Positions 13,750 to 53,558 of a DNA stretch of 64,000 nt are shown here, one piece after another; positions within the stretch are counted from its first letter, which is position 1; every line of letters begins with the position of its first letter. Below the pieces are notes generated by a model. That model did not search any database and was not told the origin of the DNA. It saw nothing but the letters and a program-made list of their open reading frames with translations. The stretch is taken from the NCBI GenBank assembly GCA_002068915.1, contig MWBE01000017.1:3818-67817 (forward strand), written 5' to 3'. The position numbers were made by a program, and so were the translations under genes. This DNA is from Parcubacteria group bacterium ADurb.Bin326. GTDB taxonomy: Bacteria > Patescibacteriota > Patescibacteriia > 2-01-FULL-39-33.

Positions 13750-13803
13750 ATGTTTATAGAATAATTATAACAAAAAACAATTAAATCTTAAATAAATTAA
13801 GCG

Positions 13804-13832
13804 TTGACAATTTATCAAATTTATACTAATCT
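13804..13832 (+). promoter_or_regulatory. candidate promoter (TTGACA ... TATACT/TAATCT, suboptimal spacing) for the GC-rich zinc-ribbon gene, followed by a strong SD AAGGAGG
   Basis: TTGACA at 13804-13809. Possible -10 hexamers at 13823-13828 or 13827-13832. AAGGAGG lies 8 nt before the ATG at 13887. Confidence 0.35.
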
Positions 13833-13886
13833 ATTTTAGATAGTCAGTTGTCCTTTCCATAAACATCAACTAAGGAGGATTGTGTC

Positions 13887-14366
13887 ATGAGAGCGACTCG
13901 AAACAACTCGGGTGAAGCCAAGGAAGTAAAAGAGGCCAGAAAGCGTCTACACCAGATGCGCGGTACTGGCTTTGTTCTGACCCCAGACGCCGCCAAGCTG
14001 ATTATGACGGCCGGAGGCCCGACCTTTAGAACAGTTAGTGGCGGCTATCGTTGCAACCAGACCGGAGAGAAGGTGGGGCGAGGCAGCACCGAGAACTACC
14101 GCCAACGAGTGTACGGACTGGCGGCTCCGCCCAAGCCGGTCGTAGTCCAAACGAACGCTTCGGCCAGCTCTTCTAGGAGAACGGTCCAATCGCACATTCC
14201 GGAAATTGACATCACCAGCCCTGACGTCTTTATACGTTGTCCAAACCCGCTCTGTGAAGTTGGGATCGGCTATGCCAATCTCATGCTCGAAGGTATCGGG
14301 GTCTGTCCGAGGTGCAACAAGCAGTTTCGAAAAATCCGACACCCGCAATCAGTGAAAAGGACGTAA
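13887..14366 (+). CDS. hypothetical GC-rich protein with a C-terminal Cys4 zinc ribbon (CPNPLC...CPRC)
   Basis: 159-aa ORF with SD AAGGAGG. Visibly higher GC than flanking genes. The in-frame sequence after the TAA stop (14367-14492) encodes a second CPHC...CQFC zinc ribbon. Confidence 0.55.
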   Translation: MRATRNNSGEAKEVKEARKRLHQMRGTGFVLTPDAAKLIMTAGGPTFRTVSGGYRCNQTGEKVGRGSTENYRQRVYGLAAPPKPVVVQTNASASSSRRTVQSHIPEIDITSPDVFIRCPNPLCEVGIGYANLMLEGIGVCPRCNKQFRKIRHPQSVKRT

Positions 14367-14520
14367 CCCAGTCCAACCGGAAACATCAACTGCCCGCACT
14401 GCTATGAACGAATCGCCCACATTGTTAATTTTTCTGATTTTTACTCGACGATTGAGTGTCAATTCTGCCACCGCAAGCTGATCGTCGAGTAGGATACACC
14501 CTGTCCTCCCGACTACACAT

Positions 14521-14562
14521 CCGCCGGCGCGCCACCTAGGCTCGCCGGCTTCTTTTTTTTAT
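14521..14562 (+). terminator. intrinsic terminator (GCCGGCG ... CGCCGGC + T9) ending the GC-rich cassette
   Basis: GC-rich inverted repeat followed by ttcttttttttt. Confidence 0.6.
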
Positions 14563-14582
14563 TAGATTCTTTAACATAAAAA

Positions 14583-14612
14583 CAAAAGAGCGATTACTAA
14601 TCGCTCTTTTGT
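14583..14612 (-). terminator. intrinsic terminator downstream of the tRNA-Asn 3-prime exon (minus strand)
   Basis: AGAGCGATTA-g-TAATCGCTCT hairpin followed by a U-run on the minus strand. Confidence 0.55.
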
Positions 14613-14670
14613 TAATTAAAAAATCACCAAAGCTCCGCGAACTGGATTCGAACCAGTAACCTACCGGTTA

Positions 14671-15218
14671 CACTTATCTCTGACTTTCATCAAAGGGTGG
14701 ACTATATCATTACCTTTTCCAGTCTATTGGATTAAGGTATCAGGCGCTTCGGCCCGCCTTTAACGGCGGAACTACTCCCCAAAGGGATAGTCTCTGAACC
14801 TTCCCCTGAAAGGGGCTTGGCTGCGGATTACCATATCCTTGCGGACTTAGGCTTCCCGCAATTCACCTGATTATCATTCCAAAATTTCTTTCGGAAGCTG
14901 CGTGGAGCCGGAATGTAATTCTCTATGACAATTAGCACATACTAACAAGCATTTATTAATCTCTTGAATGACTTTATCCCAAGATCTTGAAATCCTTTTG
15001 AGGAGACGCCAAAATCTTTTTTATTGCCATCCAAATGATGGAATTCTAATGCTTGCACGCATTTACTGTAGCCACAGATTTCACACTTGCCGCCTTTATA
15101 TTCCAAGGCCTTATCCCTTACGGCTTTACGCCTCTTGGACACTGCCTCAATCAAATATTTACGACGGTCGGCATATTTTCTATTATCTTTAGTCATAACT
15201 TTTGATAACAGACGGTTC
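14671..15218 (-). mobile_element. group I self-splicing intron (~548 nt) in the tRNA-Asn anticodon loop, carrying an HNH endonuclease ORF
   Basis: On the minus strand the classic core elements are read directly: P AATTGCGGGAAG (14852-14863), Q AATCCGCAGCC (14819-14829), R GTTCAGAGACTA (14788-14799), S GATATAGTCC (14699-14708). P3 ATCAGG/CCTGAT. Candidate IGS GCAGC pairs with exon GCUGU with a terminal U-G. Omega-G at 14671. Confidence 0.8.
14942..15196 (-). CDS. intron-encoded HNH-family homing endonuclease (CEICGY ... EFHHLDGNKKD)
   Basis: The ORF track shows 14942..15238, but its first 7 codons lie in the tRNA 5-prime exon. The likely start is the internal Met at 15196 (MTKDNRKY...). C-x2-C plus HH..N HNH motif. 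Confidence 0.55.
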   Translation of the reverse strand: MTKDNRKYADRRKYLIEAVSKRRKAVRDKALEYKGGKCEICGYSKCVQALEFHHLDGNKKDFGVSSKGFQDLGIKSFKRLINAC

Positions 15219-15338
15219 ACAGCCGGTTGCTCTACCATTGAGCTATCGCGGAACTCTAGTGATTTTTATGTACTTTAATGACGTTAAATATCTTAACAAA
15301 TTTTTCTGGCTAAGTCAAGCCAAATTTTCTGTGGAAAA

Positions 15339-16652
15339 TTAGTAATCTCTCAATTTCTCGATACCCTTAATCTTCTCAATTTTCTCCAGAGCCTTAGCCT
15401 CAATTTGACGGATGCGCTCGCGAGTGACATCGAATTCTTTGCCCACTTCTTCCAGGGTATGAGCTACGCCATCCTTCAAGCCAAAGCGCATCTCCAAGAC
15501 CTTCTGTTCGCGCGGCGTCAATTCGGAAATGACCTGCTTCACGTAATCTTTTAAAATTTGTAAGGCGGCGACACGATCCGGAGTGACTGTTTTCTGGTCT
15601 TCAATAAAATCCTCTAACACGCTGTCTTCGCTATCATCGCCAACTGGAGTGCCAAGTGAGATAGTCTCTTGAGAAATCTTGATAATATGATTAATTTTAT
15701 CTAACTCTTCTCCCATTTCAGCGGCAATTTCCTCCGGCATTGGTTCGCGTCCCAAATCTTGCACTAGACGACGCTCAACTTGCTGAAAACGATTGATGTT
15801 TTCCACCATGTGCACCGGAATGCGAATGGTACGAGATTGATCGGCAAGCGATCTGGTAATCGCCTGCCTAATCCACCAGGTAGCATAAGTAGAAAACTTA
15901 TACCCCTTATGATAATCAAACTTATCAACGGCGCGGAACAATCCAATATTGCCTTCCTGGATCAAATCAAGTAACGATAAGTTCTTACCAGTAAATCTCT
16001 TAGCAATGGAAACCACTAAACGCAAATTGGCTTTAATTAATTTTTGCTTTGCTTCAACATCTCCACGCTCAATTCTTTTAGCCAAAGAAATTTCTTCATC
16101 AGAATTAAGCAATGGCACCTTGCCAATCTCGCGCAAATACATTTGAATTGAGTCGGCAGAAATATCCCCCAGATCAATGCGGTCGCTTAAGGTAATTTTT
16201 GGGCTTTTTTTGCCAGGCTCTGCCGGCGCTACAGAATTGGAAGAAGCCATAAAATTACCACCCAACAGAGATGGCGGTTCAGCTATCCTGACACTGGCAA
16301 TATCCAGAGAATCCAAAAAATCTTCGTATTTTTCCAGATTTTCCTCAACTTCGGGAAACATCAAAGAAATCTCTTGCTCAGTAACAAAAGACCTGAGCTT
16401 TCCTTTTTTAAGAAGGGATTGGATCTCTTCTTCAGAAGGAATAATTATTTGCCTTGGCTCCGGCTTTTCCTTGTGCGATTTCTTAATAATTGCCTTCTTA
16501 ATCGGCTTAGCAACCCTCTTTACTGCCGGCTTTTTAGTCGCCTTAGGCTTAGGCTTAATTTTCGAGATGATTTTCTTAACTAACTTGGCAGATTTTTTTG
16601 GCGCAGTTTTCTTAGTCGACTTAGCGGCCGGCTTTTTATTATTTTTTTTCAT
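15339..16652 (-). CDS. rpoD: RNA polymerase sigma factor RpoD (sigma-70), Lys-rich N-terminus
   Basis: 437-aa ORF with regions 1.2/2/3/4 ([40 protein letters not shown]-terminal [24 protein letters not shown]). Confidence 0.95.
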
Positions 16653-16710
16653 CGTACCTTTTGAGAATTAAATTACGCCGGCAAGAGGCAGTGCCTTGTC
16701 GCCAGCTGGT

Positions 16711-18654
16711 TTAGAGCTCTGATTTTTGCCTAATCAATTCGCTCAAAGAGATAGAAATTTTTTCTAAGGCGATCTTGTCGCCAATTTTCTCCGCCTGCCT
16801 TAGTTCATTATTCAGACGGGAAATCATCGAGCTTAAATAATTGCTTTTAAGCAATTTAAGTATGGTTTCTATTTCATTTTTGGCTTCTCTGGCGTCTAAG
16901 GAGGCAAAATCCTTTTGTGCCAGAAGATACGACTGCTCCAAAAATTGTTCGGCCCCGTCGGAGACGGCTTGGGTTTTCAGCCAATCTGTAAAGGCTGAAA
17001 AAATATTTGTTTCCTCCCGTCCACGAGCGCCTAAGGCGAACAGTTCGTTATGCGTAGTATAAAATAAAATAAGACTTTTGTAAAGCTTTTGAGCCAACCC
17101 TTCGTTTAAATAGTCTGGCAGCAGTTCCTGACTCAATTTAGACAACAATTCAGGAAAACGCCAAATAATCGCTAAAATAGTTCTAAACTTCAATAAATCC
17201 GGGTCATTTATGGTTTTTTGAGGTTGCGCCGTTACTGCGGCCTCCTGGGGCCTTACAGGGGCCTTAAGACTGCCGACAACCCTTGAAACCAACTCTCGCA
17301 AAGCTTCTTCGCCCACCGCCAAACGATTGGCGATTTCCTTAATCCAGTAATTCTTCTCTATCGGATCATCTAATTGCGCAATCTTCTCACTGAGCAACTT
17401 GGCAACATTCTTTTTTATTTGCGGATCATTTAAATCTTGAGACGCTGAAAACATCCGCCAAAAATATTCCATTATCGGCAAGGCTTCGCTAATGGCCTGA
17501 CGCCAATCATCGGGATTGTTTTTGATGCACTCGTCAGGATCCTTGCCATTAGGAATTGAGATAATTTTCAAATTCAAATTTAAACTCAAGGCCGGATCAA
17601 TGAACTGCGACCGCTTACCATATCGATCCGTCCCCTCCACCAAACGCGAATCATTTTCCACGGATTTAATCAACTCCGAACCGCGCTCAGAAGCTTTTTG
17701 TCCGGCACTATCAGCGTCTAAGGCAAAATAAATATTATTGGTAAATCTTTTAAGTAACTGAATTTGCTCTCGCGTCAAAGCCGTACCGGATGAAGCCACA
17801 GTATTTTTAAATCCAAATTGATGGCAAGTAATAGCATCCATCTGTCCCTCAACCACTACTACGGTATCTAATTTGCGAATCTCGCTTTTAGCCCGGTACA
17901 GCCCAAAAACAATGGCGCTTTTATTATAAATATCCGTTTGCGGCGTGTTCACATATTTGGCCGGCTCTTCAGGATTGAGTGTCCTGCCAGTAAAACCGCA
18001 GGTTCTGCCGTTGTGATCAACTATCGGAAACATAACGCGATTACGGAAGCGGTCATAATAACCGTTGCCCCGATCTTTTTTGACGACAAAACCGGCAGCA
18101 AAGATCTCTTCTGCCTTAAACCCTCGCTTAATCAAAAAATCAAAAAGATTGCTCCAGTCATCAATAGCATAGCCCACATTAAAATCTTCAATCACCTCTT
18201 CACTGACGCCACGTCCAGCCAAATAACTCCTCGCCGACTCCGCTCGTGGCGATTCCAATAAGACCTTATGCCAGTAACGAGCGGTTAACTCGCACAAATC
18301 ATACAAACGATTTTTACGATCGTGAGCTTGCGGATTTTGCCGTGTCAAAATTACGCCGGCACGATCTGCCAGGATTTTCAGAGCTTCGGGAAAAGAAAGA
18401 TTTTCAATCTTCATCAAAAACTCGAAAATATCTCCGCCCGCCCCGCAACCAAAGCAATGCCAAGAACCCCGCTGAGGCGAAACCATCAATGAGGGTGTTT
18501 TTTCATTATGGAACGGACAAGCGGCTTTATAAGTGCCGGTGCCGGCCGGCTGCAACTTCAGGTAATCCCGAAGCAATTCATCCACATTAATCCGCACCTT
18601 GATTTCTTCTACTTCTTGTGAGGAGGACATATTTTTCTGCCAATATCTTAGCAT
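16711..18654 (-). CDS. dnaG: DNA primase
   Basis: 647-aa ORF with a zinc-binding CPFHNEKTPS...CFGCGAGG motif and TOPRIM EGQMD; directly upstream of rpoD. Confidence 0.95.
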   Translation of the reverse strand: MLRYWQKNMSSSQEVEEIKVRINVDELLRDYLKLQPAGTGTYKAACPFHNEKTPSLMVSPQRGSWHCFGCGAGGDIFEFLMKIENLSFPEALKILADRAGVILTRQNPQAHDRKNRLYDLCELTARYWHKVLLESPRAESARSYLAGRGVSEEVIEDFNVGYAIDDWSNLFDFLIKRGFKAEEIFAAGFVVKKDRGNGYYDRFRNRVMFPIVDHNGRTCGFTGRTLNPEEPAKYVNTPQTDIYNKSAIVFGLYRAKSEIRKLDTVVVVEGQMDAITCHQFGFKNTVASSGTALTREQIQLLKRFTNNIYFALDADSAGQKASERGSELIKSVENDSRLVEGTDRYGKRSQFIDPALSLNLNLKIISIPNGKDPDECIKNNPDDWRQAISEALPIMEYFWRMFSASQDLNDPQIKKNVAKLLSEKIAQLDDPIEKNYWIKEIANRLAVGEEALRELVSRVVGSLKAPVRPQEAAVTAQPQKTINDPDLLKFRTILAIIWRFPELLSKLSQELLPDYLNEGLAQKLYKSLILFYTTHNELFALGARGREETNIFSAFTDWLKTQAVSDGAEQFLEQSYLLAQKDFASLDAREAKNEIETILKLLKSNYLSSMISRLNNELRQAEKIGDKIALEKISISLSELIRQKSEL

Positions 18655-18680
18655 TTAAAGCCTAATTACGCCAGTTCAAC

Positions 18681-18712
18681 AAAAAAACGAGGCTTTAGGG
18701 CCTCGTTTTTCT
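18681..18712. terminator. intrinsic terminator (CGAGGC-tttagg-GCCTCG) between desulfoferrodoxin and dnaG
   Basis: Hairpin flanked by A7 and T5; serves the minus-strand dfx gene. Confidence 0.5.
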
Positions 18713-18719
18713 AAAAACT

Positions 18720-19106
18720 TTACTTTTTCCAAAGTCCGTGCAGATTGCAATATTCTCTAGCCACAACCTCTCCAGCTCCGGCCGGCAAATCAAATTCTGC
18801 TTCCGGCGCCTCGCCTGGTTGCAAGAATTTCTTATAACTAATGCCATCAACTAAAATTTCAATCCATTCAATATAATGGGCGTCTTCCATCGGGTGTGCC
18901 ACCTCGCCAACTTTGACTTTAACCTTATCGCCTTCCCTTTCTAGCACTGGAACGTGTTTTTCTGTGGCGCCATCAGTAGTATTCTCTTCTTGCAAAACCA
19001 TATCCTGACCGCAACAAACTAAAGTTCCACCGCCGGCGCGTGTTACTTCTACGATATTACCGCAAACGGCACATTTGTAAACTTCGTTAATTTTCTTGAC
19101 TGCCAT
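18720..19106 (-). CDS. dfx: desulfoferrodoxin (2Fe superoxide reductase)
   Basis: 128-aa ORF with N-terminal desulforedoxin Cys (CAVCGN...CCGQ) and SOR centre ligands (H..H...C..H). Confidence 0.85.
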
Positions 19107-19116
19107 ATGTTTGCAA

Positions 19117-19701
19117 TTAGTAATTTTCTGATTTCAATTGGTAAAAGGCTTGGGCATGATTACAAGACGGACATTCTTGTGGAGCTTCTTTGCCAAAATG
19201 AACATAGCCGCATTCGCGACAAACCCACCAGACTTCTTCTTCTTTCTTAAATACTGTGCCCGCCTCAACCTCTTTTAACAATTTCATGTATCTCTCCTCG
19301 TGATGCTCTTCGGCCACCGCGATAGCCCGTAAACGAGCGGCGATTTTTGGATAACCTTCTTGCTCGGCAGTAGCGGCAAACTCCGGATACATCGTCACAT
19401 GTTCATAATTTTCTCCGGCGATTGCAGCCTTTAAATTTTCTGCCGTCGTACCATAAACAGTCGGCACTTCAGCTTCTACTTTCAAAGCTGAAAGATCTTC
19501 ATCTGACAACTTTTTTAGTTCTTGAATTTCGCCAAACAATTTAGCTGCATGTTCACGCTCCTGGTCGGCGGTGGTCAAAAAAACTTCAGCAATCTGCTCA
19601 AAGCCTTCCTTTTTCGCTACTTTGGCATACATGGTATAACGATTTCTGGCTTGCGACTCCCCTACAAACGCCTTGGCCAAATTTTTAATTGTTTCTGACA
19701 T
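19117..19701 (-). CDS. rbr: rubrerythrin
   Basis: 194-aa ORF with a ferritin-like diiron domain (E..H motifs) and a C-terminal rubredoxin CxxC...CxxC (CRECGY...CPSCNH). Confidence 0.9.
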
Positions 19702-24762: not shown

Positions 24763-24990
24763 AAGCTTATTTTAAAGCCTAAAACGCAAAACAGTGAAAT
24801 TCTTTTGACATTTTTTTGGCTAAAATTAAATACTTTTTATTGAAATATGATTAATATGACTTAATTATATCAAAAAAAATCCTTTTTGTCAATGGCAACA
24901 CCTAGAACCAATATATTTCACTGTTTTAACAATAAAAAAACAAGTCCAAGCAAAGGCCTGAACCCGTTGCTTATATTTTTTTACTTTCAA

Positions 24991-32428: not shown

Positions 32429-32457
32429 TTTACAAATATTAAAATGTATGCTATAAT
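32429..32457 (+). promoter_or_regulatory. near-consensus sigma70 promoter TTTACA-N17-TATAAT
   Basis: TTTACA at 32429-32434, exact 17-nt spacer, TATAAT at 32452-32457. A GC-rich transcript region starts immediately downstream. Confidence 0.6.
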
Positions 32458-32562
32458 TAAATAATTGGTCGAGTTGACCAAGATTGGTGAAAATGGCTGT
32501 CCGACCTCGGCTTGGGTCGGCAGCAGGAATAGACCTCTGACCAGAGGCAAGAAGGAGAAAGC

Positions 32563-32758
32563 CATGAAAGAGCAAAGTCGCATGCCGGCACGCCGTCGCA
32601 GCACCGGCGAAAACGTGAGAAAACAAGAGCACCGGCCACACATGATTTTCGCCAGCTATGGTGACGGGGAACGCCCCATAATCATCCGCGAAGGCGACCG
32701 GCCGCAGCCCCGCGTTACCCGCGTCTCCGGCTCCGTTGATCCCGCCAAGGCCACCTAA
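32563..32758 (+). CDS. candidate small Arg-rich protein (64 aa, MKEQSRMPARRRSTGENVRK...), which may instead be part of a structured ncRNA
   Basis: [17 protein letters not shown]. Lies in a short GC-rich island between the promoter at 32429 and the terminator at 32830. The ORF track's longer 32465 start would sit at the transcription start and is unlikely. Confidence 0.3.
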
Positions 32759-32829
32759 CCCCGCAACACCGAGCAGCGTCTCGCCACCGCGGCGTAGATC
32801 TGCCTCCCCGCACTTTTTTTCACCTTCAC

Positions 32830-32867
32830 CCCCACCGCTTGAGAAACGGTGGGGCCATTTTTTTATT
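32830..32867 (+). terminator. intrinsic terminator (CCCCACCG-cttgagaaa-CGGTGGGG + T7)
   Basis: Read directly; preceded by a CCCCGCACTTTTTTT motif. Confidence 0.65.
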
Positions 32868-35120: not shown

Positions 35121-36128
35121 TTAAATTGAATTCTTATAATATCCCCTATTATTTTCTGGCAACATCTGAGCAATTTGCGTCATTAGCCAATCAGTATTGT
35201 TAAGCTCGCTATTATTCTCATCAAAAGTAACAGCCTCTCCCACCTTCAATATTTTTCCTCGTCCAGATTCTTCAAAAAAAGAGGTTGGCAATATTGGCAA
35301 CTGCTTGCCGGTTAACTTTTCATATTGTGAAGCGACCAATTCCAGTCCTCTATAAGCCTGCTTCATCTCTGGTTTCTCTTGGGTAAGTGACTGGGGTTGC
35401 AGCCACAACCCTTCGGGAAACAAACACATTGCGTCTCCGCGAGACAATACCGCAACTGATTGCCTGACAAAATCCGTATCGACCCGCAGTCCGCCACGAT
35501 CTTCTTGCGCGCTTATTTCTTGAAAAACTTTCTTGCCCACGATACCCTGCCTTTCTTTGGCGGCGTACTTTTCTTCTTTGGATAGATTAGACAAACTTTC
35601 TTGGACAGGAATAGCCTTGATAGCTTTCAAAAAACTTCTAGCAAAAAATGAATTTTTCCACCAAATACTTTTGCCAATGATTGGATGCGGATTAAAATCC
35701 TTAAATGTTTTCAGAAGCGCCTGAACATCGCCATTACCAAAATGATTACAAACAACAACAAAGGGGCCTGACTCTGGAATATTCTCCTTATTCCTTAATT
35801 CAAATCTTACGCTTCCGGACCAAAGATCCAAAAATAAATTAGAAACCAAAGACTTTTCTTTTTTTAAATAATCCGGCAAATAACGGCTTTGATAATCAGA
35901 AATCTTCCGGCTTAATGATTCACCATTTGAGAAATCGGTTGATGGCCCTTGTTTTATTGAATCAATTTTTTTCCTAGTTGCCTCAATCTGTTCGACAACA
36001 TCTTCTGGACTATCAGATTCCAATACTTCCGAAGACTCAATTTGATCTGACTGGTAAGATTCTGTTCCGGATGCGTCCTCTGGACTGATTGGGAACCTTT
36101 CATTACCTTGATTTTTTTCTCCTATCAT
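35121..36128 (-). CDS. lysophospholipid acyltransferase (PlsC/LPLAT family) with an acidic N-terminal extension
   Basis: 335-aa ORF with the H-x4-D motif (VVCNHFGNGDV) and a downstream FPEG motif. Confidence 0.6.
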   Translation of the reverse strand: MIGEKNQGNERFPISPEDASGTESYQSDQIESSEVLESDSPEDVVEQIEATRKKIDSIKQGPSTDFSNGESLSRKISDYQSRYLPDYLKKEKSLVSNLFLDLWSGSVRFELRNKENIPESGPFVVVCNHFGNGDVQALLKTFKDFNPHPIIGKSIWWKNSFFARSFLKAIKAIPVQESLSNLSKEEKYAAKERQGIVGKKVFQEISAQEDRGGLRVDTDFVRQSVAVLSRGDAMCLFPEGLWLQPQSLTQEKPEMKQAYRGLELVASQYEKLTGKQLPILPTSFFEESGRGKILKVGEAVTFDENNSELNNTDWLMTQIAQMLPENNRGYYKNSI

Positions 36129-36256: not shown

Positions 36257-36329
36257 GCGCCTATAGCTCAGTCGGTAGAGCAACAGCCTTTTAAGCTGAT
36301 GGTCCCAGGTTCGAGTCCTGGTGGGCGCA
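36257..36329 (+). tRNA. tRNA-Lys (anticodon UUU)
   Basis: GCGCCTA-TA-GCTC-AGTCGGTA-GAGC-A-ACAGC-CTTTTAA-GCTGA-TGGTC-CCAGG-TTCGAGT-CCTGG-TGGGCGC-A. Canonical cloverleaf, anticodon loop CUUUUAA. Confidence 0.9.
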
Positions 36330-36495
36330 TAAATGAAAAATCCGCTTATGGGCGAATTTTTATGTTGGCCCAATGAATTGTCTATATCATTGACAAAAAT
36401 AGATAATTATGATACTTTAATTTGTTACTAATAAAAATTAGAGCCCCCAGCTGCAAGGGTTATTGTAGTAAACGGCACATTGAAAGGTTAGAAAA

Positions 36496-38058
36496 ATGAA
36501 CATAAGTAGTTTTGTCAAAGAACTGGCAAAGATACTGCCGAAGAATCTACTCAGTATGCAAACGGATGACAGGAGGGCCGTGGCAAGTCGAGTAATATTC
36601 TCCGGAGACTGGGAGAAGCAAGAACAGACAACTCTACTCAGTAACGACCCTGTTGTTATTGATGGGCTGTATGAGAAAAAGAGTCTTCGTTTGTGTGGCC
36701 ACTTCGGGAGAAAAAGAGAGACAACCGAAATTCTCAATTTCATATCCGCTCTCCTCTTCGAGTCCAAGCAGATGATTTTTGGCCCGCTAGACTTCAAGGC
36801 TAAGGTGACGGTTTGGTGGAAAAAAGTAGAAGACTTCTTTCAAGAGACTGACATGGCAGATTTATCCGCCATTAACGTCAAAGCAGTCTTCTACTCCGAA
36901 GATCCTACTAGGCCGAGGTTCGGCCTAACCCAAAAAGAGCACCGTTTTGAAGCCCAGCTCAGCCGTTTGCCGCTTGGAATGAAAAAACTCGTAGTCACTG
37001 CCCAAGGAGATTATGCCCCCATACTTCAGAAGAAGGCTGAGGGCAGTGTGACTATAAGTTTATCGCCGGCTGACACTGAGAGATTGTTGAAGGCCTCTGG
37101 CGGGATGTCACGAAGACTGCTTGAAGCGGCACTGAAGCCGCAAAAAAAGCGAGTCTGCCGGTTCAATTCGGAAAGCGGCATGATGGAAGAGGGCTGGATT
37201 GAAGAAATCACCCTCCTTATATCAGCCTCGAGGCTTCCCTACTACGAAGGGGTCTTGAGACGCAAGCTACCGGTCAATTCCCAGGTCGGCAACAAAAGAA
37301 GCAGCATTGCCAGGATCACCAGAATCTTCTGGCGCACCAGTACTGCGCTGTCGGCAATGAAAGAGCTGATTGGCCAACTTGATTGTTTGGAAACAACAAC
37401 AGTCTTCGACCGGCCAATAATAACTTTGGCCGGGGCCAAAGCCTTCCTCGACCAACTAATGGCGGCAATTGAAGAGACTTGCATCTCCGGTCGCATGTTT
37501 TACGGAGTCGCCAACCGACAACTTAGGCTCTTTGCCCTAAAGCAAGCGGAGGAGCAGTTTGGCAAAGACGTAGTAACCAAACGAGAAGACATGGAAGAGC
37601 GCCAATACGTAGAATTCCTCGAAGAACTGGGGTTTATCAAAGGAGTTCAAGCAGAAGAAGGCTCTCTCGATTTCAATTTTAAAGAGAAAAACCTCTTCTT
37701 GTTTCTGCTACAGTCCTACCGAGCTAATCCCGAAAAGCTTGTCGCCCGATACCGGGAACTCTACGTCAACAAGCCACCAAAGACCCTTATTTGGGGTGAA
37801 GCCGTTCTCGACGCCTCCAAGCTGAAGAGACTACAATTGCCGTCTCAGGCGAAAGTCAGCGGTCTAAGCCTCAGAAAGATTCCAGGAACAGGAGAATCGG
37901 AAGAGTTGATTGTTCAGAATGAATTGCCCTTTAAGGAAAACGATTTTTCCTTTTGGGCAAGAATTCCAATCGAGTCTGAAGGCACCCCGCTCCTGGAACT
38001 GCAGAACTACGCTTGCGAAGCCCTGGGAATCACTGTTGCGAATGCGACTGGCGCCTGA
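36496..38058 (+). CDS. hypothetical protein (520 aa), compositionally distinct from neighbours, immediately downstream of tRNA-Lys
   Basis: Long ORF with moderately elevated GC and no recognised motifs. Candidate promoter TTGACA (36390-36395) with a weak -10. Own terminator downstream. Confidence 0.5.
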   Translation: MNISSFVKELAKILPKNLLSMQTDDRRAVASRVIFSGDWEKQEQTTLLSNDPVVIDGLYEKKSLRLCGHFGRKRETTEILNFISALLFESKQMIFGPLDFKAKVTVWWKKVEDFFQETDMADLSAINVKAVFYSEDPTRPRFGLTQKEHRFEAQLSRLPLGMKKLVVTAQGDYAPILQKKAEGSVTISLSPADTERLLKASGGMSRRLLEAALKPQKKRVCRFNSESGMMEEGWIEEITLLISASRLPYYEGVLRRKLPVNSQVGNKRSSIARITRIFWRTSTALSAMKELIGQLDCLETTTVFDRPIITLAGAKAFLDQLMAAIEETCISGRMFYGVANRQLRLFALKQAEEQFGKDVVTKREDMEERQYVEFLEELGFIKGVQAEEGSLDFNFKEKNLFLFLLQSYRANPEKLVARYRELYVNKPPKTLIWGEAVLDASKLKRLQLPSQAKVSGLSLRKIPGTGESEELIVQNELPFKENDFSFWARIPIESEGTPLLELQNYACEALGITVANATGA

Positions 38059-38083
38059 TTCCTGGCCCACCTTTCCCGCCCAG

Positions 38084-38117
38084 GGGACAACGTTTCGAAC
38101 ACGTTGTCCCTTTTTTT
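38084..38117 (+). terminator. intrinsic terminator (GGGACAACGT-ttcgaac-ACGTTGTCCC + T7)
   Basis: Perfect 10-bp stem followed by a T-run. Confidence 0.7.
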
Positions 38118-42029: not shown

Positions 42030-42034
42030 AATCT

Positions 42035-46297: not shown

Positions 46298-46301
46298 AAA
46301 T

Positions 46302-47681: not shown

Positions 47682-47685
47682 AAAC

Positions 47686-48285
47686 TTACTTATCTTTGAA
47701 ACGATTGATCAAAATAAGATTTTTATTCTCCAATAAATCAAAAATGAAACGGTCGGTCATGCCACGACGATAAAGGAAATCTTGCTTGGACATCACGGCA
47801 TAATTAACTGATCTACCCAGCTCCTTTTCAAAATTAGCAACTAACTTAGACAGCTTCTGTTTATTGACGGTGCCAACTAACAAAAGATCGGCGGGAGCTT
47901 CTTCGCGCCCGACAAACACGCCGGAAAGCAAAAAAAGATTAACCTCGCCCATCTTCTCGACTTTATCGATAAGCGCTTGCTCCATAATGACATGGGACTT
48001 GATAAACAACGACCTCAATTCTTCAATAAAAACAAATTGGGAATTAAGACGATAATACTTTTTATTATCCTTGGCTTCCGTTTCTTCTTCTTGCGCAATT
48101 TCAGGATGATCACAACTATTTAAGATGCCGATATTTTCAAGGTTTTCCAATTCCCTCCTAACCGAATTCAAATGAATATCCAAATTCCTAGCCAATTCCC
48201 TGACAAAATAATATTTCTCCGGATTATTTAAAAATAGTCTAAGCAGTAAGACTCTGGTTTTAGAACCGAAAAGTTGGTCGAGCAT
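47686..48285 (-). CDS. winged-helix transcriptional regulator (ArsR-like N-terminus) with a C-terminal nucleotidyltransferase-like region
   Basis: 199-aa ORF with an N-terminal KTRVLLLRLF...YFVRELAR wHTH pattern. C-terminal assignment is tentative. Confidence 0.4.
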   Translation of the reverse strand: MLDQLFGSKTRVLLLRLFLNNPEKYYFVRELARNLDIHLNSVRRELENLENIGILNSCDHPEIAQEEETEAKDNKKYYRLNSQFVFIEELRSLFIKSHVIMEQALIDKVEKMGEVNLFLLSGVFVGREEAPADLLLVGTVNKQKLSKLVANFEKELGRSVNYAVMSKQDFLYRRGMTDRFIFDLLENKNLILINRFKDK

Positions 48286-48360
48286 AATTTTATTTTTAAA
48301 AGCGCTTGCTACATCAATGGCTTAATTGTATAATATTAGTGCTATAGTGTAAAGCTATCA

Positions 48361-50517
48361 ATGGATAAAAAACAGATAAAAATAGCCAAATTGGCTATCG
48401 AGGCCGACGGCAACATCATCGGTGAGTCTTTCGTTGCCAAGCCCGAAAAAGATCTGGCCTCTAAATTAGGGGTTCTTTTTGGCGTTATCGAAATGTACAA
48501 CGTCGATGATAATTTCTCCCATAAGCTTTTGGAAGCGGTTAGCGATCTAAAAACAGAGTTTTATTTGCCGCCTTACGGCACTCAATCCACTCCGGAAAAA
48601 CGTTTCGAAGAATCTTTGGCTCGAGCCAATCGCCGACTGTTTTCCGCTTTTAGTGAATCCATTGAACCTATTGATCTCAGAAACATTAATGTCACGATAG
48701 GGCTATCTAGAAAAAACGAGGTTTACTTGTCACAAATCGGACACGGCAAGGCCTTCTTGTTTCATCGCAAGAAAAACTGGGAGATGCTGGTTTTGGATAT
48801 TTTGTCAGATGAAGATCGTCCGGCGGAAAAACCTAACCCCGAAAAACTTTTTTCCAGCGTCTTGTCGGGAGCAGTTGGGGAAAACGACGGACTACTTGTT
48901 TGCAACGAGGAGTTTCTCGGTTATTTTTCACAAAACGAATTAGCCCGAACCATAGACGAACACGCTCCTGATGGAGCACTCAAATACTTAGGCGATCAAA
49001 TCAGAGAAAAAGTAGCTAAGGCCAATTTTTATGCCATCGCTATCAAGCCGGAACAGAAAGAAAAATTATTAGCGGAAGATATTTCCCAATCCAAGCCGAT
49101 AACTTCAAAATCCGGAGGCACCCAAACTTCCATCAATAAGCTACTCAACACTCAAGCCGAGACAGAAAAATATCTCGCGCCTTCGATGATGCCTAATTGG
49201 CAGAAAGCCTTAATTATTAGTGGTAGCTGGCTTAAAAAGGCCGGCTCAGTGGCTCTTGCCAAAACTGGCGTGGCTGCAGTTGCTGTCGCTAATTTGGCTA
49301 AAGAAAAACTAAATAAGCCTAAAGCCAATAAAGAAATTAAACGGGTTCAAGGAACTGAGGTTGTCCGCACCCCCAAAACCGAAGTTGCCTCTAATGACAA
49401 CAATCGAGAAGAAGAACTAAATTATAATGACCTTCCGACTAAAAATACCGACGAACGATTTGAGGCCAATGAAAATATTTCCTCCGATTTTAAGGTAACC
49501 GAAGAAGTTGAAAATATTCCGAAGCTTAATGAAAAAATCACTCCCCCCGCCACTCTAACCAAGCCAGCCAAGACTTCTTCCGGAAAAATCTCAAATCTGA
49601 TCAATGGCTGGATTAATGATCAAATAGTTAAATTCTTATCTTTGAAATTATCCCAAAGAGTAGTACTTGCTTTGGCCTTGGCATTACTTTTCCTTTTTAG
49701 CCAAAGCATTGTTTGGATTGGCAGAGCCGAAGAATCCTCTTCGACTAGAATTTCTTCCAACAACAAAGCAGCTCAAGAAATCCAAAGACTCGTCGATAAC
49801 GCTGAGGCGCAAAATATCTTCAACGACGAAGTGGGAGCCATGGCCAGCATTAAAAAAGCCAGGGAAACATTGGAAGAAATACCGGATCGCTGGGGCAATA
49901 AAGATTTGCGTCGTCAACTTATAGAAAAGATAGATTCTACTTATCGTCGATTGCAAAAAATAACCGTCTTGGACTCCCCCAAAGAATTAATCAACTTGGG
50001 TGAAGGAAGCTACGTGGGATTAGCTAGAACCACAAGAGTGCTCTGGTGCTTCAACAATTCCAACAAGGAGTTAATAAGTATTGAGGAGTCCGGTGCGGTC
50101 AAGCGTTTCCCTTCACAAATGCCGGAGGTCAGTAAATTGTCCGCCATCGATGATCGCTACCTCGCTATCCTAACTCAAGATAACTCCTTCTACCGCTACG
50201 AAGTTCCCAAAGACGAGGCAGTTAAAACCAAGCCGGGCAAAGATTATTTTACCGTCAAATATCCCACTCCCTCGCCCCTACTAGACCCTCCGCTTACCGC
50301 TTCATCAACGATTCGCAACATTTCTAGTGGTGAATATCACTATATTTTAGACAAAGACAATGGCAGGATTGTGATTTTGGACAAAAACGGAGCCATCAAA
50401 AAACAATACTACTCAGAAAAAATAAAATTGGCCGACTCTTTAATCGCCAATACTAAGGGCAAAAAACTCTGGTTCTTATCCGACGATTCAATTTATGAGA
50501 TAGACACCGAAATTTAA
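48361..50517 (+). CDS. hypothetical membrane-associated protein (718 aa; central TM)
   Basis: Long ORF with one clear hydrophobic helix (VVLALALALLFLF). No family recognised. Confidence 0.4.
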   Translation: MDKKQIKIAKLAIEADGNIIGESFVAKPEKDLASKLGVLFGVIEMYNVDDNFSHKLLEAVSDLKTEFYLPPYGTQSTPEKRFEESLARANRRLFSAFSESIEPIDLRNINVTIGLSRKNEVYLSQIGHGKAFLFHRKKNWEMLVLDILSDEDRPAEKPNPEKLFSSVLSGAVGENDGLLVCNEEFLGYFSQNELARTIDEHAPDGALKYLGDQIREKVAKANFYAIAIKPEQKEKLLAEDISQSKPITSKSGGTQTSINKLLNTQAETEKYLAPSMMPNWQKALIISGSWLKKAGSVALAKTGVAAVAVANLAKEKLNKPKANKEIKRVQGTEVVRTPKTEVASNDNNREEELNYNDLPTKNTDERFEANENISSDFKVTEEVENIPKLNEKITPPATLTKPAKTSSGKISNLINGWINDQIVKFLSLKLSQRVVLALALALLFLFSQSIVWIGRAEESSSTRISSNNKAAQEIQRLVDNAEAQNIFNDEVGAMASIKKARETLEEIPDRWGNKDLRRQLIEKIDSTYRRLQKITVLDSPKELINLGEGSYVGLARTTRVLWCFNNSNKELISIEESGAVKRFPSQMPEVSKLSAIDDRYLAILTQDNSFYRYEVPKDEAVKTKPGKDYFTVKYPTPSPLLDPPLTASSTIRNISSGEYHYILDKDNGRIVILDKNGAIKKQYYSEKIKLADSLIANTKGKKLWFLSDDSIYEIDTEI

Positions 50518-50552
50518 TAGACCAACCCTGACCAAATATAATTACGGCCAAT

Positions 50553-50588
50553 AAAAAAAGCCCGCTTGATGCGGGACTTTTTTTATTT
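50553..50588. terminator. bidirectional intrinsic terminator (GCCCGC-ttgat-GCGGGAC + T9, preceded by A8)
   Basis: Sits between the convergent 718-aa gene and rplL. Confidence 0.6.
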
Positions 50589-50594
50589 TGTCTC

Positions 50595-50993
50595 TTATTT
50601 AAGAGTAACGGTAGCGCCAGCTTCTTCCAATTCTTTCTTAATCTTTTCGGCTTCTTCCTTCTTAGCACCTTCTTTGACCATCTTAGGAGCTCCATCAACC
50701 AAATCCTTAGCTTCTTTCAAGCCCAAGGCAGTGATAGTGCGGACAACTTTGATGACATTGATCTTCTGATCGCCAGCGGCGGTAAGTTCAACATCGAAAG
50801 AATCCTTCTCCTCAGCGGCAGCAGCTCCGGCTCCACCGGCAGCCATCATGACTGGGGCAGCAGCAGAAACACCAAACTTCTCTTCTAAAACTTTGACCAA
50901 CTCAGCCAAATCAATGACTGACAATTTGTCGATTTGTTCTACCAAAGATTTGAATTTCTCCGGTACCATAACCTCTTTTTGTTCTTCTGACAT
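50595..50993 (-). CDS. rplL: 50S ribosomal protein L7/L12
   Basis: 132-aa ORF with an Ala-rich hinge and the C-terminal domain ([11 protein letters not shown]...ATVTLK). Confidence 0.95.
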
Positions 50994-51017
50994 ATTTTTT
51001 TCCTTTTAGTTAATAAT

Positions 51018-51521
51018 TTAGGCGGTAGAGCCTTCTTTGCTCTCCTTGATCGCGTTGATTACGCGAGCCAAGCCGGACATCGGATTGGAGATACAACCGA
51101 CAACCTTGGCCAGCAACTCCTTTCTAGAAGGAATTTTGGATAACTCGGTAACACGACCGGCGTCGATGAATTTGCCTTCCAGCACTCCTCCGACGAACTT
51201 CACTTTGTCGTTTTCCTTGGCAAACGAAGCTAAGATTCTAGCTGGAGCAACTTCATCCTCATAAGAGAATAAAGTGGCGACCTCGCCCTGCAGCTCGGCT
51301 GCAGCAGCATCTTCAAACCCTTTTTCTGAGAGAACTTTCTTTAGCAAGGTTTTCTTAGCCACCAAATAATCGATGCCTTCCTTGCGACAGTTGTCTCTAA
51401 GTTTGTTGATGTCCTTAACTTCTATGCCGGAAAAGTTGAACATGACAGCGGACTTCATTTGGCCAACTTTGTCGGACAAAGTTCCCAAAATGGCAGTCTT
51501 CTGCGCTTTTGTTTTTGGCAT
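51018..51521 (-). CDS. rplJ: 50S ribosomal protein L10
   Basis: 167-aa ORF immediately upstream of rplL, with an L10 N-terminal domain. Confidence 0.95.
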   Translation of the reverse strand: MPKTKAQKTAILGTLSDKVGQMKSAVMFNFSGIEVKDINKLRDNCRKEGIDYLVAKKTLLKKVLSEKGFEDAAAAELQGEVATLFSYEDEVAPARILASFAKENDKVKFVGGVLEGKFIDAGRVTELSKIPSRKELLAKVVGCISNPMSGLARVINAIKESKEGSTA

Positions 51522-51690
51522 AGCTTGATTGTTAATTTTCTAAACTAACTTCCGTTATACAAAAAAACTGCGTTTCCGCAGATCTTAAAATGGCTAAAAA
51601 GCCGTTTCTCGGCAGGTCTTATCGGGGTTTTTCTCCCCAGCCCACTGTCTACGAAAGTTATGCTCTAATTATAGCAGAAAGCTAAAAAAA
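51522..51690 (-). promoter_or_regulatory. rplJ promoter (TTGACT-N16-TATAAT) and ~150-nt structured leader containing a terminator-like hairpin (CTGCG-gaaa-CGCAG + U7): candidate L10-leader attenuator
   Basis: Read on the minus strand. L10-leader autoregulation by attenuation is established in Firmicutes; assignment here is by position and structure only. Confidence 0.4.
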
Positions 51691-51787
51691 GTCAAATGAT
51701 TGATGGTTGAGGCTGTAAAAATGGGACTGATTTTAATTAAAATTATCTAAATCTAAATAAAATATAATAAATTATATCGCACATCTC

Positions 51788-51816
51788 TTGACAAAATATC
51801 TAATGTGTGCTATAAT
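51788..51816 (+). promoter_or_regulatory. exact consensus sigma70 promoter TTGACA-N17-TATAAT driving a ~170-nt GC-rich structured leader
   Basis: TTGACA at 51788-51793, 17-nt spacer, TATAAT at 51811-51816. Confidence 0.65.
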
Positions 51817-51988
51817 TATATATTGTAATTGAAACAATTCAGTTGCAACGGTCCTTAACAACTAGGGAACGAAAGCGGGTACGGCTCTCAGATAGCTGTG
51901 CTCGCAGGATCTATAGGAAGCGACTTCGGCGGCAGTGGAGCTGCTTTGAAGTCGTAAGAATGGCACAACCCAAGAAGGAGAACTTGCC

Positions 51989-53491
51989 ATGAAGAAACTT
52001 AGTGTTGTATTGATGATGGTTTTTGTGGTTTTCGGCTGCCTGGTGCTTACCGGCTGTAACAAGCCTGGCGACAACAACGGCGAGAACCCGCCGGCCGTGG
52101 TCAACCCTGAAGGCGAAACGCCCGAGGGCGAAGACGGGCCGACGATCCGCCCGGTTGTGGAAGGTGAACCTGAGACCCCTGCGGTCGAGGGTGAACCGGA
52201 AGTGCCTGCCGAGGGCGAGCCCGAAGTGCCGACGGAACAGTCCGGCAGTATCGTTATCACCGGAGTCCTTTTCAAGGGACTGCCGGCAACCAAGGCGCTG
52301 AGCGCGGACGAGAACGGACTGACAGCTGAAGAGCTGAGTCAGGCGTTCCTCGAAATCGCTGCGGCGACCGATGGACTGGAGTTGGTGCTTGACGGTGACG
52401 GCGAGAATGATTACAAACGCTCCTGCACTGTGCAGAGCGACGGGTCATTCTTCTTGCGCCTGGCAAGTGTTCTGCCCGGCGATTACAAGCTGGAGCTGAA
52501 CACCATGTCCAGCACCACCGGCATCAACGGCTGGGGCAAATCCGAAGTCGATGTGAAAATCGAAGCCGGCAAGGTCACCCAGGTGACCGTCGCCCTCGAG
52601 CGGATGGAAACGTTCGCAATCCTCGGATACTTCAGCGATGAACTCGCGGAAGATGAGGATTGGGGTTCGTTTGAAGCCTTCCTAGTCGACACCGCGGGAA
52701 ACAATTATACCGCGGTCCTCGCCAAAAACGATGCCGACGAATGGGTGATCAACGGGTACAACCTGCCTGTCTCGGCCATCATTGGGGCCTTGAAGATCAC
52801 GGGCGACGACATCGAAACCATGATGTTCGCCGTCGACACGACGAGCACGGCTTTCGAGAACGGCTACTCGTTATTCGACGTGATCGACAACGAAGCCATG
52901 CTCGCCCTCGTATCCGACACTGGAGACCTTGAAGTCACCGTCCCCCCGATTGATCTGGGTGAAGGTGAAGACGAAGAGGGCGAAGTTGAGAGTGAGGACG
53001 AAACCGAAGGCGAAGGCGAAACTGAAGGCGAAGGAGAAGTTGAAGATGATAACTCCCTTCCCCTGGTCGCCGGCAAAGCGACGGTCGGGCTGATCATCGA
53101 AACCGATGGCTCAGTGACGATGCTCGCCGACGCCAACGAGGGCTTCAGCCTGCCCCTGTCCTTCTACGGCCTCCCCGCTTCGATTGCCTCGCTCGGCGTC
53201 GAGGTTTACTACCTGGATGACGCCCACGACCCCGACGGTGCTTGGGAAGATCGCCAAGTCGTGGCTTGCTCCGGACTGCCGTTCGAGGCAACCGTGAACA
53301 TCTTCGATTCCCCGGTCTGGCGTTTCCAAGTGGTTGCCAACTCCGTGGACATGTGGGCCGGAAACTATGCCAACTCCGTGAAGTTCCATGTCGTGGTCAA
53401 GTACCGCGATGCTGAGAATTGGACAACACTGAGTCAGTCCGATGACGGCAGTGGCAACATGGCGTACCAGGTCGATACCCGGACGCTGTAA
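51989..53491 (+). CDS. GC-rich acidic lipoprotein (500 aa; lipobox LVLTGC; Glu/Pro-rich linker repeats; Asp/Glu-rich segments)
   Basis: [19 protein letters not shown]. Signal peptide plus Cys lipobox. Composition strongly GC-rich compared with neighbours. No catalytic motif recognised. Confidence 0.55.
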   Translation: MKKLSVVLMMVFVVFGCLVLTGCNKPGDNNGENPPAVVNPEGETPEGEDGPTIRPVVEGEPETPAVEGEPEVPAEGEPEVPTEQSGSIVITGVLFKGLPATKALSADENGLTAEELSQAFLEIAAATDGLELVLDGDGENDYKRSCTVQSDGSFFLRLASVLPGDYKLELNTMSSTTGINGWGKSEVDVKIEAGKVTQVTVALERMETFAILGYFSDELAEDEDWGSFEAFLVDTAGNNYTAVLAKNDADEWVINGYNLPVSAIIGALKITGDDIETMMFAVDTTSTAFENGYSLFDVIDNEAMLALVSDTGDLEVTVPPIDLGEGEDEEGEVESEDETEGEGETEGEGEVEDDNSLPLVAGKATVGLIIETDGSVTMLADANEGFSLPLSFYGLPASIASLGVEVYYLDDAHDPDGAWEDRQVVACSGLPFEATVNIFDSPVWRFQVVANSVDMWAGNYANSVKFHVVVKYRDAENWTTLSQSDDGSGNMAYQVDTRTL

Positions 53492-53520
53492 ACGCCACCC
53501 CCCTACCCCGCACTTTTACT

Positions 53521-53558
53521 CCCCCCAGCTACTGAAAGCAGCTGGGGGTCTTTTTTTT
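53521..53558 (+). terminator. intrinsic terminator (CCCCAGCT-actgaaagc-AGCTGGGG + T8), preceded by a CCCCGCACTTTT motif
   Basis: Read directly. Confidence 0.7.

Follow-up and report, generated by a model that had tools for sequence, protein, structure and literature searches.

Why should a stretch of genome whose genes run mostly in one direction carry four isolated, GC-rich transcription units in the other? The window analyzed here, 64,000 nucleotides in its full length, holds 45 of its 52 other genes on the minus strand, while the four units, C1 to C4, all lie on the plus strand, with open reading frames (ORFs) at 13887-14366, 32564-32758, 36496-38058, and 51989-53491. A sequence-only reading had remarked on this orientation and proposed that the units are cassettes from one donor lineage or mobile vehicle, or else engineered or otherwise artificial insertions. 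The analysis covered about 81 kb of this genome. The neighbors of the units are housekeeping genes, and when strains are compared, the surroundings of C2 and C4 prove to be heavily mosaic through recombination. As judged at the sequence level, each unit is monocistronic, with its own sigma70-type promoter and its own intrinsic terminator, an arrangement that would shield it from the surrounding host operons, which run the other way. Integron gene cassettes were considered and rejected as a model: the units have their own promoters and terminators, are dispersed, and show neither an integrase nor an attC-like imperfect inverted repeat. On balance, the units are probably four separate, unrelated, monocistronic protein-coding genes that are stable, lineage-restricted residents in the genome of an ultra-small, uncultured bacterium of the Patescibacteria (CPR), with C1, C2, and C4 acquired by ancient transfer.

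The GC enrichment claimed for all four units was borne out at several levels. GC3 is 0.606 in C1, 0.692 in C2, 0.543 in C3, and 0.713 in C4, versus 0.418±0.039 in the host (z = +3.2 to +7.6), and overall GC is 0.55, 0.62, 0.49, and 0.58, respectively, versus 0.415, the enrichment of C3 being only moderate. Codon choice and dinucleotide signature are also atypical. Leucine codons are CTC or CTG in 59% of cases in the units, while the host uses TTG or TTA in 60%; the dinucleotide distance δ* to the host is 140 to 162 for C1, C3, and C4, above every size-matched host segment for C3 and C4 and above the 95th percentile for C1. C1 and C4 lie much closer to one another (δ* = 52.6) than to the host (141 and 162, respectively), which fits a shared compositional background, and the signature of C3 differs from theirs. 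The 3' untranslated regions (UTRs) of C1, C2, and C4 are C-rich.

How are these genes expressed? The promoters are, as proposed, sigma70-type with 17-nt spacing on all four units, but exact consensus hexamers, claimed for two, occur together only in C4 (12/12; C2 has 11/12). Nor is their likeness to E. coli promoters a foreign mark, because extended -10 promoters of this consensus also drive host genes, as at 24892 (minus strand, 12/12) and in the rplJ promoter (11/12). A strong Shine-Dalgarno (SD) site had been assigned to every unit; C1, C2, and C4 have one (AAGGAG(G)), and C3 does not (GAAAGG). AGGAG-type sites therefore precede three of four units, versus none of about 50 host genes, and the strong-SD fraction has a median of 0 across 69 other fetched loci, nearly all from Patescibacteria. 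In orthologues of the units the SD is kept. The GC-rich stem and T-run described at the end of each unit are indeed present, forming stable hairpins (fold z -2.8 to -5.5). A scan with Rfam 15 returned only a group I intron and tRNA-Lys above the gathering score, and with relaxed thresholds the C2 and C4 units yielded nothing beyond noise at E≥0.3.

C4 encodes a predicted surface lipoprotein of 500 amino acids (51989-53491, plus strand). Read from the translation, MKKLSVVLMMVFVVFGCLVLTGC is a putative signal peptide whose last residues, LTGC, fit the lipobox pattern [LVI][ASTG][GA]C, and orthologue P0002, located between rplJ and murA in L013, has LACASGC. Acidic Pro/Glu-rich linkers are found in the protein, and dN/dS is 0.13-0.19. 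Transcription would begin from TTGACA-17-TATAAT with a TG extension (51788-51816), yielding a structured 5' leader of about 165 nt (51823-51988; fold z = -3.94). Its predicted fold opens with a hairpin at the very 5' end and continues through three internal hairpins; a last one holds the SD (51975-51980) in the loop and the AUG in the stem. Compared with a variant that is 18% divergent (L102), none of the 46 predicted pairs is broken, and nine one-sided changes preserve pairing. The terminator, CCCCCAGCU...AGCUGGGGG plus a T-run, lies at 53522-53558 (fold z = -2.75); in L002, a C-to-U change in its stem keeps a G-U pair.

C2 is much smaller, with an ORF for a basic protein of 64 amino acids (32564-32758; 76 in strain L004) that matched no family in searches. 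Its promoter, TTTACA-17-TATAAT with a TG extension, lies at 32429-32457, and L004 has TTGACA at the -35 position. A structured leader with a 5'-terminal hairpin (32464-32563) is supported by folding and by comparison with L004, contains the SD AAGGAG at 32552-32557, and is followed, after the ORF, by a 3' UTR (32770-32862; z = -3.17) and the terminator CCCCACCG...CGGTGGGG plus a T-run (32830-32864). Could C2 be mainly an RNA gene, or a dual-function RNA, in which the structured 5' region and the 3' motif and terminator are what is conserved and the small ORF is secondary? The leader is 92% identical to that of L004 and the 3' UTR 97%, whereas the ORF, at 72%, is near the neutral divergence seen at third codon positions of neighboring genes (25-29%); all 28 predicted leader pairs stay intact, with a compensatory change at one and wobble changes at two. 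However, the three ORF indels are each a multiple of 3 in length, amino acid identity is 63% with dN 0.25 and dS 0.66 (dN/dS 0.37), the strong SD stands at the correct spacing from the AUG, and Rfam offers no match. A recombination mosaic could also explain the high UTR identity. A primarily RNA role for C2 is unlikely.

C1 is predicted to encode a double zinc-ribbon protein (13887-14492, plus strand). In this strain an in-frame TAA at 14364-14366 interrupts the ORF; without the stop the product has 201 amino acids, and P0004 (201 amino acids, 92% identical) has Gln at the stop position. The comparison with the L014 orthologue, which is 52% identical, gives dN 0.40 and dS 1.44 (dN/dS 0.28). 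Orthologue P0005 reaches 25.4 bits with Pfam IBR (PF01485; cut-off 24.3, E = 1.5e-5), versus 11.8 bits for the repaired protein of the window, and the Cys pairs are compatible with a generic double zinc ribbon as well as with IBR. Its promoter (13804-13832), in a region of 16% GC, consists of TTGACA (13804-13809), a 17-nt spacer, and TAATCT (13827-13832), matched in position by TTGACA-17-TAATAT in L014. In the leader, the predicted fold pairs a GUCCUUUCC element with the SD AAGGAGG at 13872-13878 (whole feature, 13850-13878); L014 retains both GTCCTTTCCAT(A/T)AACA and the SD. A C-rich spacer (14493-14522) precedes the terminator GCCGGCG...CGCCGGC plus a T-run (14523-14560; fold z = -5.45), whose stem is also conserved there. 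C1 was found in 14 contigs.

The sequence-only reading placed tRNA genes beside C1 and C3, and both are there. At C1 it is a minus-strand tRNA gene (14633-15252) split by a group I intron (RF00028, 101 bits, 14678-14954) with an HNH-type ORF showing the motif CANCHRELH. The exon halves were read from the sequence, and ARAGORN calls the tRNA, His-GUG, only after in silico removal of the intron. The C1 orthologue in L014 sits between a gene for a 175-amino-acid protein and, again, an intron-bearing tRNA. Upstream of C3 lies tRNA-Lys(UUU) on the plus strand (36257-36329; ARAGORN, and Rfam tRNA at 73.4 bits).

C3 itself is a separate case, an ordinary member of a wider, uncharacterized family of proteins of about 500 amino acids with mildly raised GC. 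Its ORF (36496-38058, 520 amino acids) has distant homologues. The promoter, TTGACA-17-TACTTT with a TG extension, lies at 36390-36418, and a C-rich spacer (38059-38081) leads into the terminator (38082-38117; fold z = -3.51). The confidently predicted fold has no global match in the PDB. A papain-like deubiquitinase of the Josephin/UCH type was considered for C3 and rejected, as the protein does not combine that fold with a conserved catalytic Cys and His. Its distant homologues, lack of an SD, and deviating signature set C3 apart, so that the four units do not make one set.

C1, C2, and C4, by comparison, form one class: all three have GC- and C-rich transcripts, codon and dinucleotide usage unlike the host's, SD sites, structured leaders, and C-rich 3' UTR spacers. 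Leader pairing is conserved across variants of 8-18% divergence for C2 and C4, and the C1 element is conserved in sequence. The parts of these units are plausibly interdependent. A GC-rich, folded mRNA would be unable to use A/U-rich, SD-independent initiation and would therefore need an SD, while the 5'-terminal hairpin and the strong hairpin at the 3' end would make the message long-lived.

What of the motif CCCCGCACTTTT, which had been reported just before the terminator hairpins of C2 and C4? Both copies exist, at 32806-32817 and 53506-53517 on the plus strand (the latter 2 nt upstream of the position first given, 53508-53519), and both are single-stranded in the predicted folds and 5' of the hairpins. 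The window contains exactly these two, even when one mismatch is allowed. Window-wide significance is weak, with two or more matches in 6 of 100 shuffles; the sharing of a 12-mer within the set of four 3' UTRs has p≈0.0035 in mononucleotide shuffles, by a test chosen post hoc. The C4 orthologue of L013 has CTCCGCACTTTC in the motif position, before a different hairpin. The CCCCGCACUUUU tract within the motif is unpaired, directly 5' of the terminator hairpin, and embedded in 3' UTRs of 39-47% C. It probably acts in cis within the 3' UTR, for example in protein binding or message stability, rather than being a recombination scar. Regulatory RNAs, RsaE/RoxS and 3' UTR-derived small RNAs among them, are known to have C-rich single-stranded seeds just upstream of terminators, and the tract may be comparable, being C-rich, single-stranded, and just upstream of a terminator. 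It differs in that a search of the window found no complementary partner for it and in matching no Rfam family.

Where, then, did the units come from? The abrupt changes in GC and the textbook look of the promoters, SD sites, and terminators might suggest an assembly chimera, contamination, or engineered inserts, as might a 4-nt difference between the window and the public record at 35508-35512, though this lies outside all four units. The record otherwise equals the window over all parts compared, units included, and the window sequence is contained in a Patescibacteria MAG (GCA_022705865.1). Unit junctions are identical across independent NCBI, JGI, ENA, and Logan assemblies from unrelated samples: those of C4 recur in ENA ERZ15185696 and ERZ28614917 and in Logan SRR28820825, SRR17648133, and ERR4682457, and C2 and C3 are also present in JGI 3300010351. 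Natural variants, moreover, leave frame and RNA pairing intact, so that an origin as chimera, contaminant, or engineered insert has next to no probability. Recent insertion from one donor lineage or on one mobile vehicle is very improbable as well, even though the atypical composition, the similarity of C1 to C4, the adjoining tRNA genes, and the shared 12-mer all speak for it. Orthologues of C4 and C1 are found in matching positions in L013 and L014, respectively, genomes among which host genes show 41-92% protein identity and saturated dS. C4 is present on every contig that has the exact rplJ or murA of its flanks, and no empty site was seen in the small number of relatives sampled. No convincing direct or inverted repeats or target-site duplications were found at the unit borders, neither an integrase nor a transposase borders any unit (the closest integrase is past the right end of the window), and phage, plasmid, and viral collections contain no homologues. 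The units are thus neither an artifact nor a recent insert, since their junctions recur and relatives with near-saturated silent sites carry syntenic, GC-rich orthologues. As for a common source, the shared background of C1 and C4 and the SD sites of three units are in keeping with it; the different signature of C3 and the mutually unrelated proteins are not.

An older origin leaves two accounts to be weighed. Composition and SD usage, and these alone, point to a horizontal origin of C1, C2, and C4, which most likely entered before the sampled species split; the source would have been GC-richer and SD-using, and the recipient an ancestor of the genus. Alternatively, they may be native genes that were never transferred, fast-evolving and lineage-specific, whose GC- and C-rich silent sites, SD sites, and hairpin-capped UTRs all reflect selection for mRNAs that are very stable and translated strongly and in a special way, or else GC-biased gene conversion at hot spots of recombination. 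The native account is possible, if rather doubtful. In its favor, the UTRs are GC-rich as well as the coding regions, so that the shift coincides with transcript boundaries; heavy mosaic recombination surrounds C2 and C4; and the host's own rplJ and RRM-protein genes have raised GC3 (0.55) and prefer NNC codons. C4, too, has kept its GC: at four-fold sites it is 0.417 identical to the L013 orthologue, near the saturation expectation of 0.322, and GC there is 0.78 and 0.69, respectively, versus 0.49 and 0.44 in host genes, crude near-saturation figures from one orthologue pair per gene. Silent-site GC has thus not drifted toward the host value despite near-saturated divergence. Against a native origin, the CTC/CTG leucine usage and dinucleotide signature are unlike those of host ribosomal-protein genes. 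Orthologues are outliers in their turn (GC3 0.63 and 0.64), that of C4 in L013 having 0.63 versus 0.33 for rplL and 0.40 for rplJ; comparable outliers are rare, about 10 ORFs in 1.3 Mb of other Patescibacteria loci; and reported effects of GC-biased gene conversion in bacteria are far below +0.3 in GC3. Under horizontal entry, the composition of the three units would since have been held in place rather than ameliorated, with slow amelioration a possible alternative for C1.

All four units are most likely protein-coding, and purifying selection is seen in C4, C1, and C2 at the dN/dS values given above. Among 5.8 billion proteins searched, C1 and C4 found only close relatives; C1, C2, and C4 have no homologues outside this circle, and the searches found no donor lineage. 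Among the marks of a genomic island, deviant composition was found, while mobility genes or repeats, patchy presence, and a donor were not. In the Lawrence-Ochman amelioration framework, atypical, lineage-restricted ORFans or islets are attributed to horizontal transfer. The units resemble such islets in being GC3, codon, and dinucleotide outliers between host operons, without homologues beyond close relatives and, in two cases, beside tRNA genes. They differ in having no mobility genes or flanking repeats, in occupying the same sites in diverged species, and in the undrifted silent-site GC of C4. Rare SD-led genes have also been described in Bacteroidota, in genomes otherwise initiating without an SD; by analogy, a few special genes here may use AAGGAG(G) among SD-less host genes, though these are GC-rich orphans with structured leaders and not ribosomal-protein genes. 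In the ompA, ermC, and aprE leaders, a 5'-terminal stem-loop stabilizes the mRNA, with a strong terminator hairpin at the 3' end. The C2 and C4 leaders likewise begin in a hairpin a few nucleotides from the predicted start site, as placed from the -10 positions only, and a very stable hairpin closes each of the four units.

The four GC-rich, plus-strand single-gene units exist much as the sequence-only reading described them, and as an observation that reading was largely right. Their ORFs lie at 13887-14366 (C1, a double zinc-ribbon gene), 32564-32758 (C2, for a 64-aa basic protein), 36496-38058 (C3, for a 520-aa protein), and 51989-53491 (C4, for a predicted 500-aa lipoprotein). The surroundings are indeed predominantly minus strand (45 of the 52 other genes), and the GC enrichment is real, set against a host background of about 41% GC: GC3 is 0.606 in C1, 0.692 in C2, 0.543 in C3, and 0.713 in C4 versus 0.418 ± 0.039 in host genes, the other genes of the window. 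The GC-rich zone begins at the predicted transcript start and stops at the terminator. Stable terminators are present in all four units, and all four 3'UTRs are C-rich (39 to 47% C). Antisense ORFs inside the units were dismissed, as GC-rich DNA is expected to have them. The reported adjacency to tRNA genes also holds, with a tRNA-Lys upstream of C3 and, next to C1, a tRNA gene interrupted by a group I intron that contains an HNH-type ORF. The latter (14633-15252, minus strand) is read by ARAGORN as His-GUG once the intron is removed in silico and is missed otherwise; the intron, of about 540 nt, sits in the anticodon-loop region, and its ORF carries the motif CANCHRELH.

The promoters are less uniform than had been claimed. 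Two units had been credited with exact hexamers, but both hexamers are exact only in C4; C2 matches at 11 of 12 positions, and C1 and C3 combine an exact -35 hexamer with weaker -10 hexamers. Judged by their sequence, the promoters are of host type. The same consensus occurs in host promoters, for example, that of rplJ and a minus-strand TTGACA-17-TATAAT at 24892, and the promoter segments of the units, at 16 to 25% GC, resemble host intergenic DNA. The promoter string shared by units, GTGCTATAATTA, was rejected as a cassette mark: it is the extended -10 consensus of the host.

Could the units be engineered DNA or a product of misassembly? The same junctions in independent assemblies, together with natural variants, speak against engineering and clear a public MAG of suspected engineered or chimeric sequence. 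The window is also found in NCBI MAG GCA_022705865.1 (contig JAKJDR010000001.1, 363 kb). C4 with its neighbors rplJ and murA recurs exactly in ENA and in several Logan runs, the C3 and C2 proteins and junctions recur in JGI 3300010351, and C1 recurs exactly in 14 contigs. As for variants, a JGI contig from a related strain (L004) carries a C2 with 63% protein identity and three in-frame indels, and a diverged version of the C4 region (L102) is 83% identical in DNA.

Across all parts compared, the window agrees with the contig's public record, save at 35508-35512, in a minus-strand acyltransferase gene (35121-36128). Here, the window reads TTGCGCGCTT, and both that record and the independent L004 read TTGATCAATT; the four substitutions alter two residues (I206S and D207A). 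Strain identity switches sharply between long blocks of 100% and blocks of about 85% (window 27754-48057 against L004; 49639-58892 against L102), which suggests, from the alignments, either frequent homologous recombination between coexisting strains or mosaic assemblies.

Neither do the units look like recent arrivals. In a diverged relative (locus L013), a 565-aa orthologue of C4 occupies the same site, between rplJ and murA, and in another (L014), the C1 orthologue likewise has the 175-aa gene on one side and the intron-bearing tRNA on the other. Host genes of the window genome are 41 to 92% identical to those of these relatives, with synonymous sites saturated. The N-terminal part of C4 is 71% identical (dN/dS 0.13), conserved about as much as murA. 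The proposal of a single mobile vehicle found no footing: there were no flanking repeats around the units, no adjoining mobility genes, and no viral, phage, or plasmid relatives. The distribution of the genes is narrow. The window's DnaB is at most 66% identical to that of any species representative, the nearest being Magasanikbacteria, Uhrbacteria, and Falkowbacteria (labels within Patescibacteria). In a dnaB-based genome scan, the nearest representatives (DnaB 63 to 66% identical) lack all four genes. Most likely, the units are old, lineage-specific genes with an expression architecture of their own.

Where did they come from? Their composition departs from the host's in ways that go beyond GC content. 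Leucine codons are 59% CTC/CTG in the units versus 60% TTG/TTA in the host, and NNC codons are strongly favored. The GC-independent dinucleotide signatures of C3 and C4 differ from the host's by δ* of 140 and 162, compared with a maximum of 115 among 300 size-matched host segments; for C1, the value is 141, above the 95th percentile for its size. C1 and C4, both far from the host, are alike (δ* 52.6, the 4.5th percentile of same-genome pairs). Other Patescibacteria loci contain few similar outliers (about 10 ORFs across 1.3 Mb), and about 17 kb of flanking sequence (some 10 kb to the left and 7 kb to the right) adds neither GC-rich units nor copies of the motif. A different outlier does lie about 4.5 kb past the right end of the window (L101, 6420-6887), an acetyltransferase gene next to a gene of the phage integrase family; it is very AT-rich (GC 0.25, GC3 0.19) and so departs in the direction opposite to that of the four units.

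The probable origin of C1, C2, and C4 is ancient acquisition from a source that was richer in GC and used Shine-Dalgarno (SD) sites. C3 falls outside this GC-rich, SD-led class, since a distant member of its family, upstream of prfB, has host-like GC. The main rival to ancient acquisition is a fully native origin, with selection acting on mRNA properties. Is the GC-richness fading or maintained? At four-fold sites of conserved residues, C4 and its L013 orthologue are near saturation (identity 0.417 versus 0.322 expected), and GC at C4 four-fold sites is 0.78 in the window and 0.69 in L013, versus 0.49 and 0.44 in host genes. Simple decay would need an ancestral C4 GC4 above 1, and the composition of C4 therefore seems to be maintained, a crude estimate that does not hold for C1. 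C4 offers a clean example of atypical composition that does not mean recent transfer, its silent-site GC-richness persisting across species.

A strong SD had been described for every unit. C1, C2, and C4 have AAGGAGG or AAGGAG, retained in orthologues, and C3 lacks a strong site. Of about 50 host genes in the window, whose upstream regions are A/T-rich, not one has an AGGAG-type site, and strong SDs are rare in 69 of the other loci fetched, nearly all from Patescibacteria (median fraction 0). SD-led genes are limited to a few orphans in a genome otherwise without SDs, a contrast that could be used to test translation start in CPR bacteria. A literature search covering the accession and, for CPR bacteria, GC-rich genes or the use of SDs returned nothing relevant.

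Structured leaders also set C1, C2, and C4 apart. The leader of C4 is about 165 nt (51823-51988; fold z = -3.9), and against a variant with 18% divergence, all 46 predicted pairs are kept, with nine changes that preserve pairing. The C2 leader (32464-32563) keeps 28 of 28 predicted pairs in the strain variant, one change being compensatory. In both leaders, the predicted 5' end forms a hairpin; neither matches an Rfam family, and the two are candidates for new cis-regulatory or stabilizing RNA elements that merit follow-up. In C1, a conserved leader element, UCCUUUCC, is predicted to pair with the SD.

At the other end, the 12-mer reported before two terminators is present at 32806 (C2) and 53506 (C4), the latter two bases from the position first given. 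Two copies across the whole window are not statistically compelling; in a post hoc test among the four 3'UTRs, the sharing of a 12-mer has a p of ≈0.0035. It is unpaired in the predicted fold, immediately 5' of the terminator hairpin, and its complement is absent from the window. The C4 orthologue in L013 retains CTCCGCACTTTC ahead of a terminator with an altered stem sequence. Between strains, the C2 3'UTR keeps 97% identity against a divergence of about 27% at neutral sites, although recombination mosaics could add to this identity. The 12-mer is read as a putative cis-acting 3'UTR element. At the C4 terminator, weak Rfam matches (NsiR1 and TCV_H4) were set aside as noise.

A bolder proposal, which we consider improbable, is that C1, C2, and C4 would form a conserved, co-regulated class, with an SD-dependent route apart from the genome's SD-independent one, a common 3'UTR element (CCCCGCACUUUU), and hairpin-capped, GC-rich mRNAs. 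Such a dedicated channel, which might serve surface or host-interaction proteins, would persist through selection and not as a leftover of transfer.

What do the units encode? Sequence searches of Pfam, NCBIfam, PHROGs, PADLOC, and PDB gave nothing usable, though a C1 orthologue narrowly exceeds the Pfam IBR threshold, and a word-indexed search for C1, C3, and C4 returned near-identical relatives only. C4 is a predicted lipoprotein whose linkers are acidic and rich in Pro and Glu. The C2 ORF evolves nearly as fast as neutral sites, its UTRs being conserved; C2 may therefore act at the RNA level. An exhaustive homologue search, made for C3 only, found 46 distant family members of about 500 aa, all without names. 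One relative (P0052) matched only short contigs and another (P0008) nothing in metagenomes. The AF2 model of C3 reaches a pLDDT of 88 with the alignment versus 34 from the single sequence, and Foldseek with the alignment-based model found no match in PDB or BFVD (none global in PDB). This family, with its confident predicted fold, is a further candidate for follow-up.

C1 ends at an in-frame TAA (14364-14366), where a 92%-identical, 201-aa relative (P0004) has Gln. The next 41 codons stay open and encode the second zinc ribbon; they are present in every C1-bearing contig examined, seven of eight being identical to the window. Either a recent nonsense mutation or a two-part gene in this strain could explain the TAA. 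Finally, four genes of host composition, at 48361-50517, 56670-58463, 13222-13749, and 47686-48285 (718, 597, 175, and 199 aa), are conserved in relatives, with only weak, subthreshold Pfam matches.
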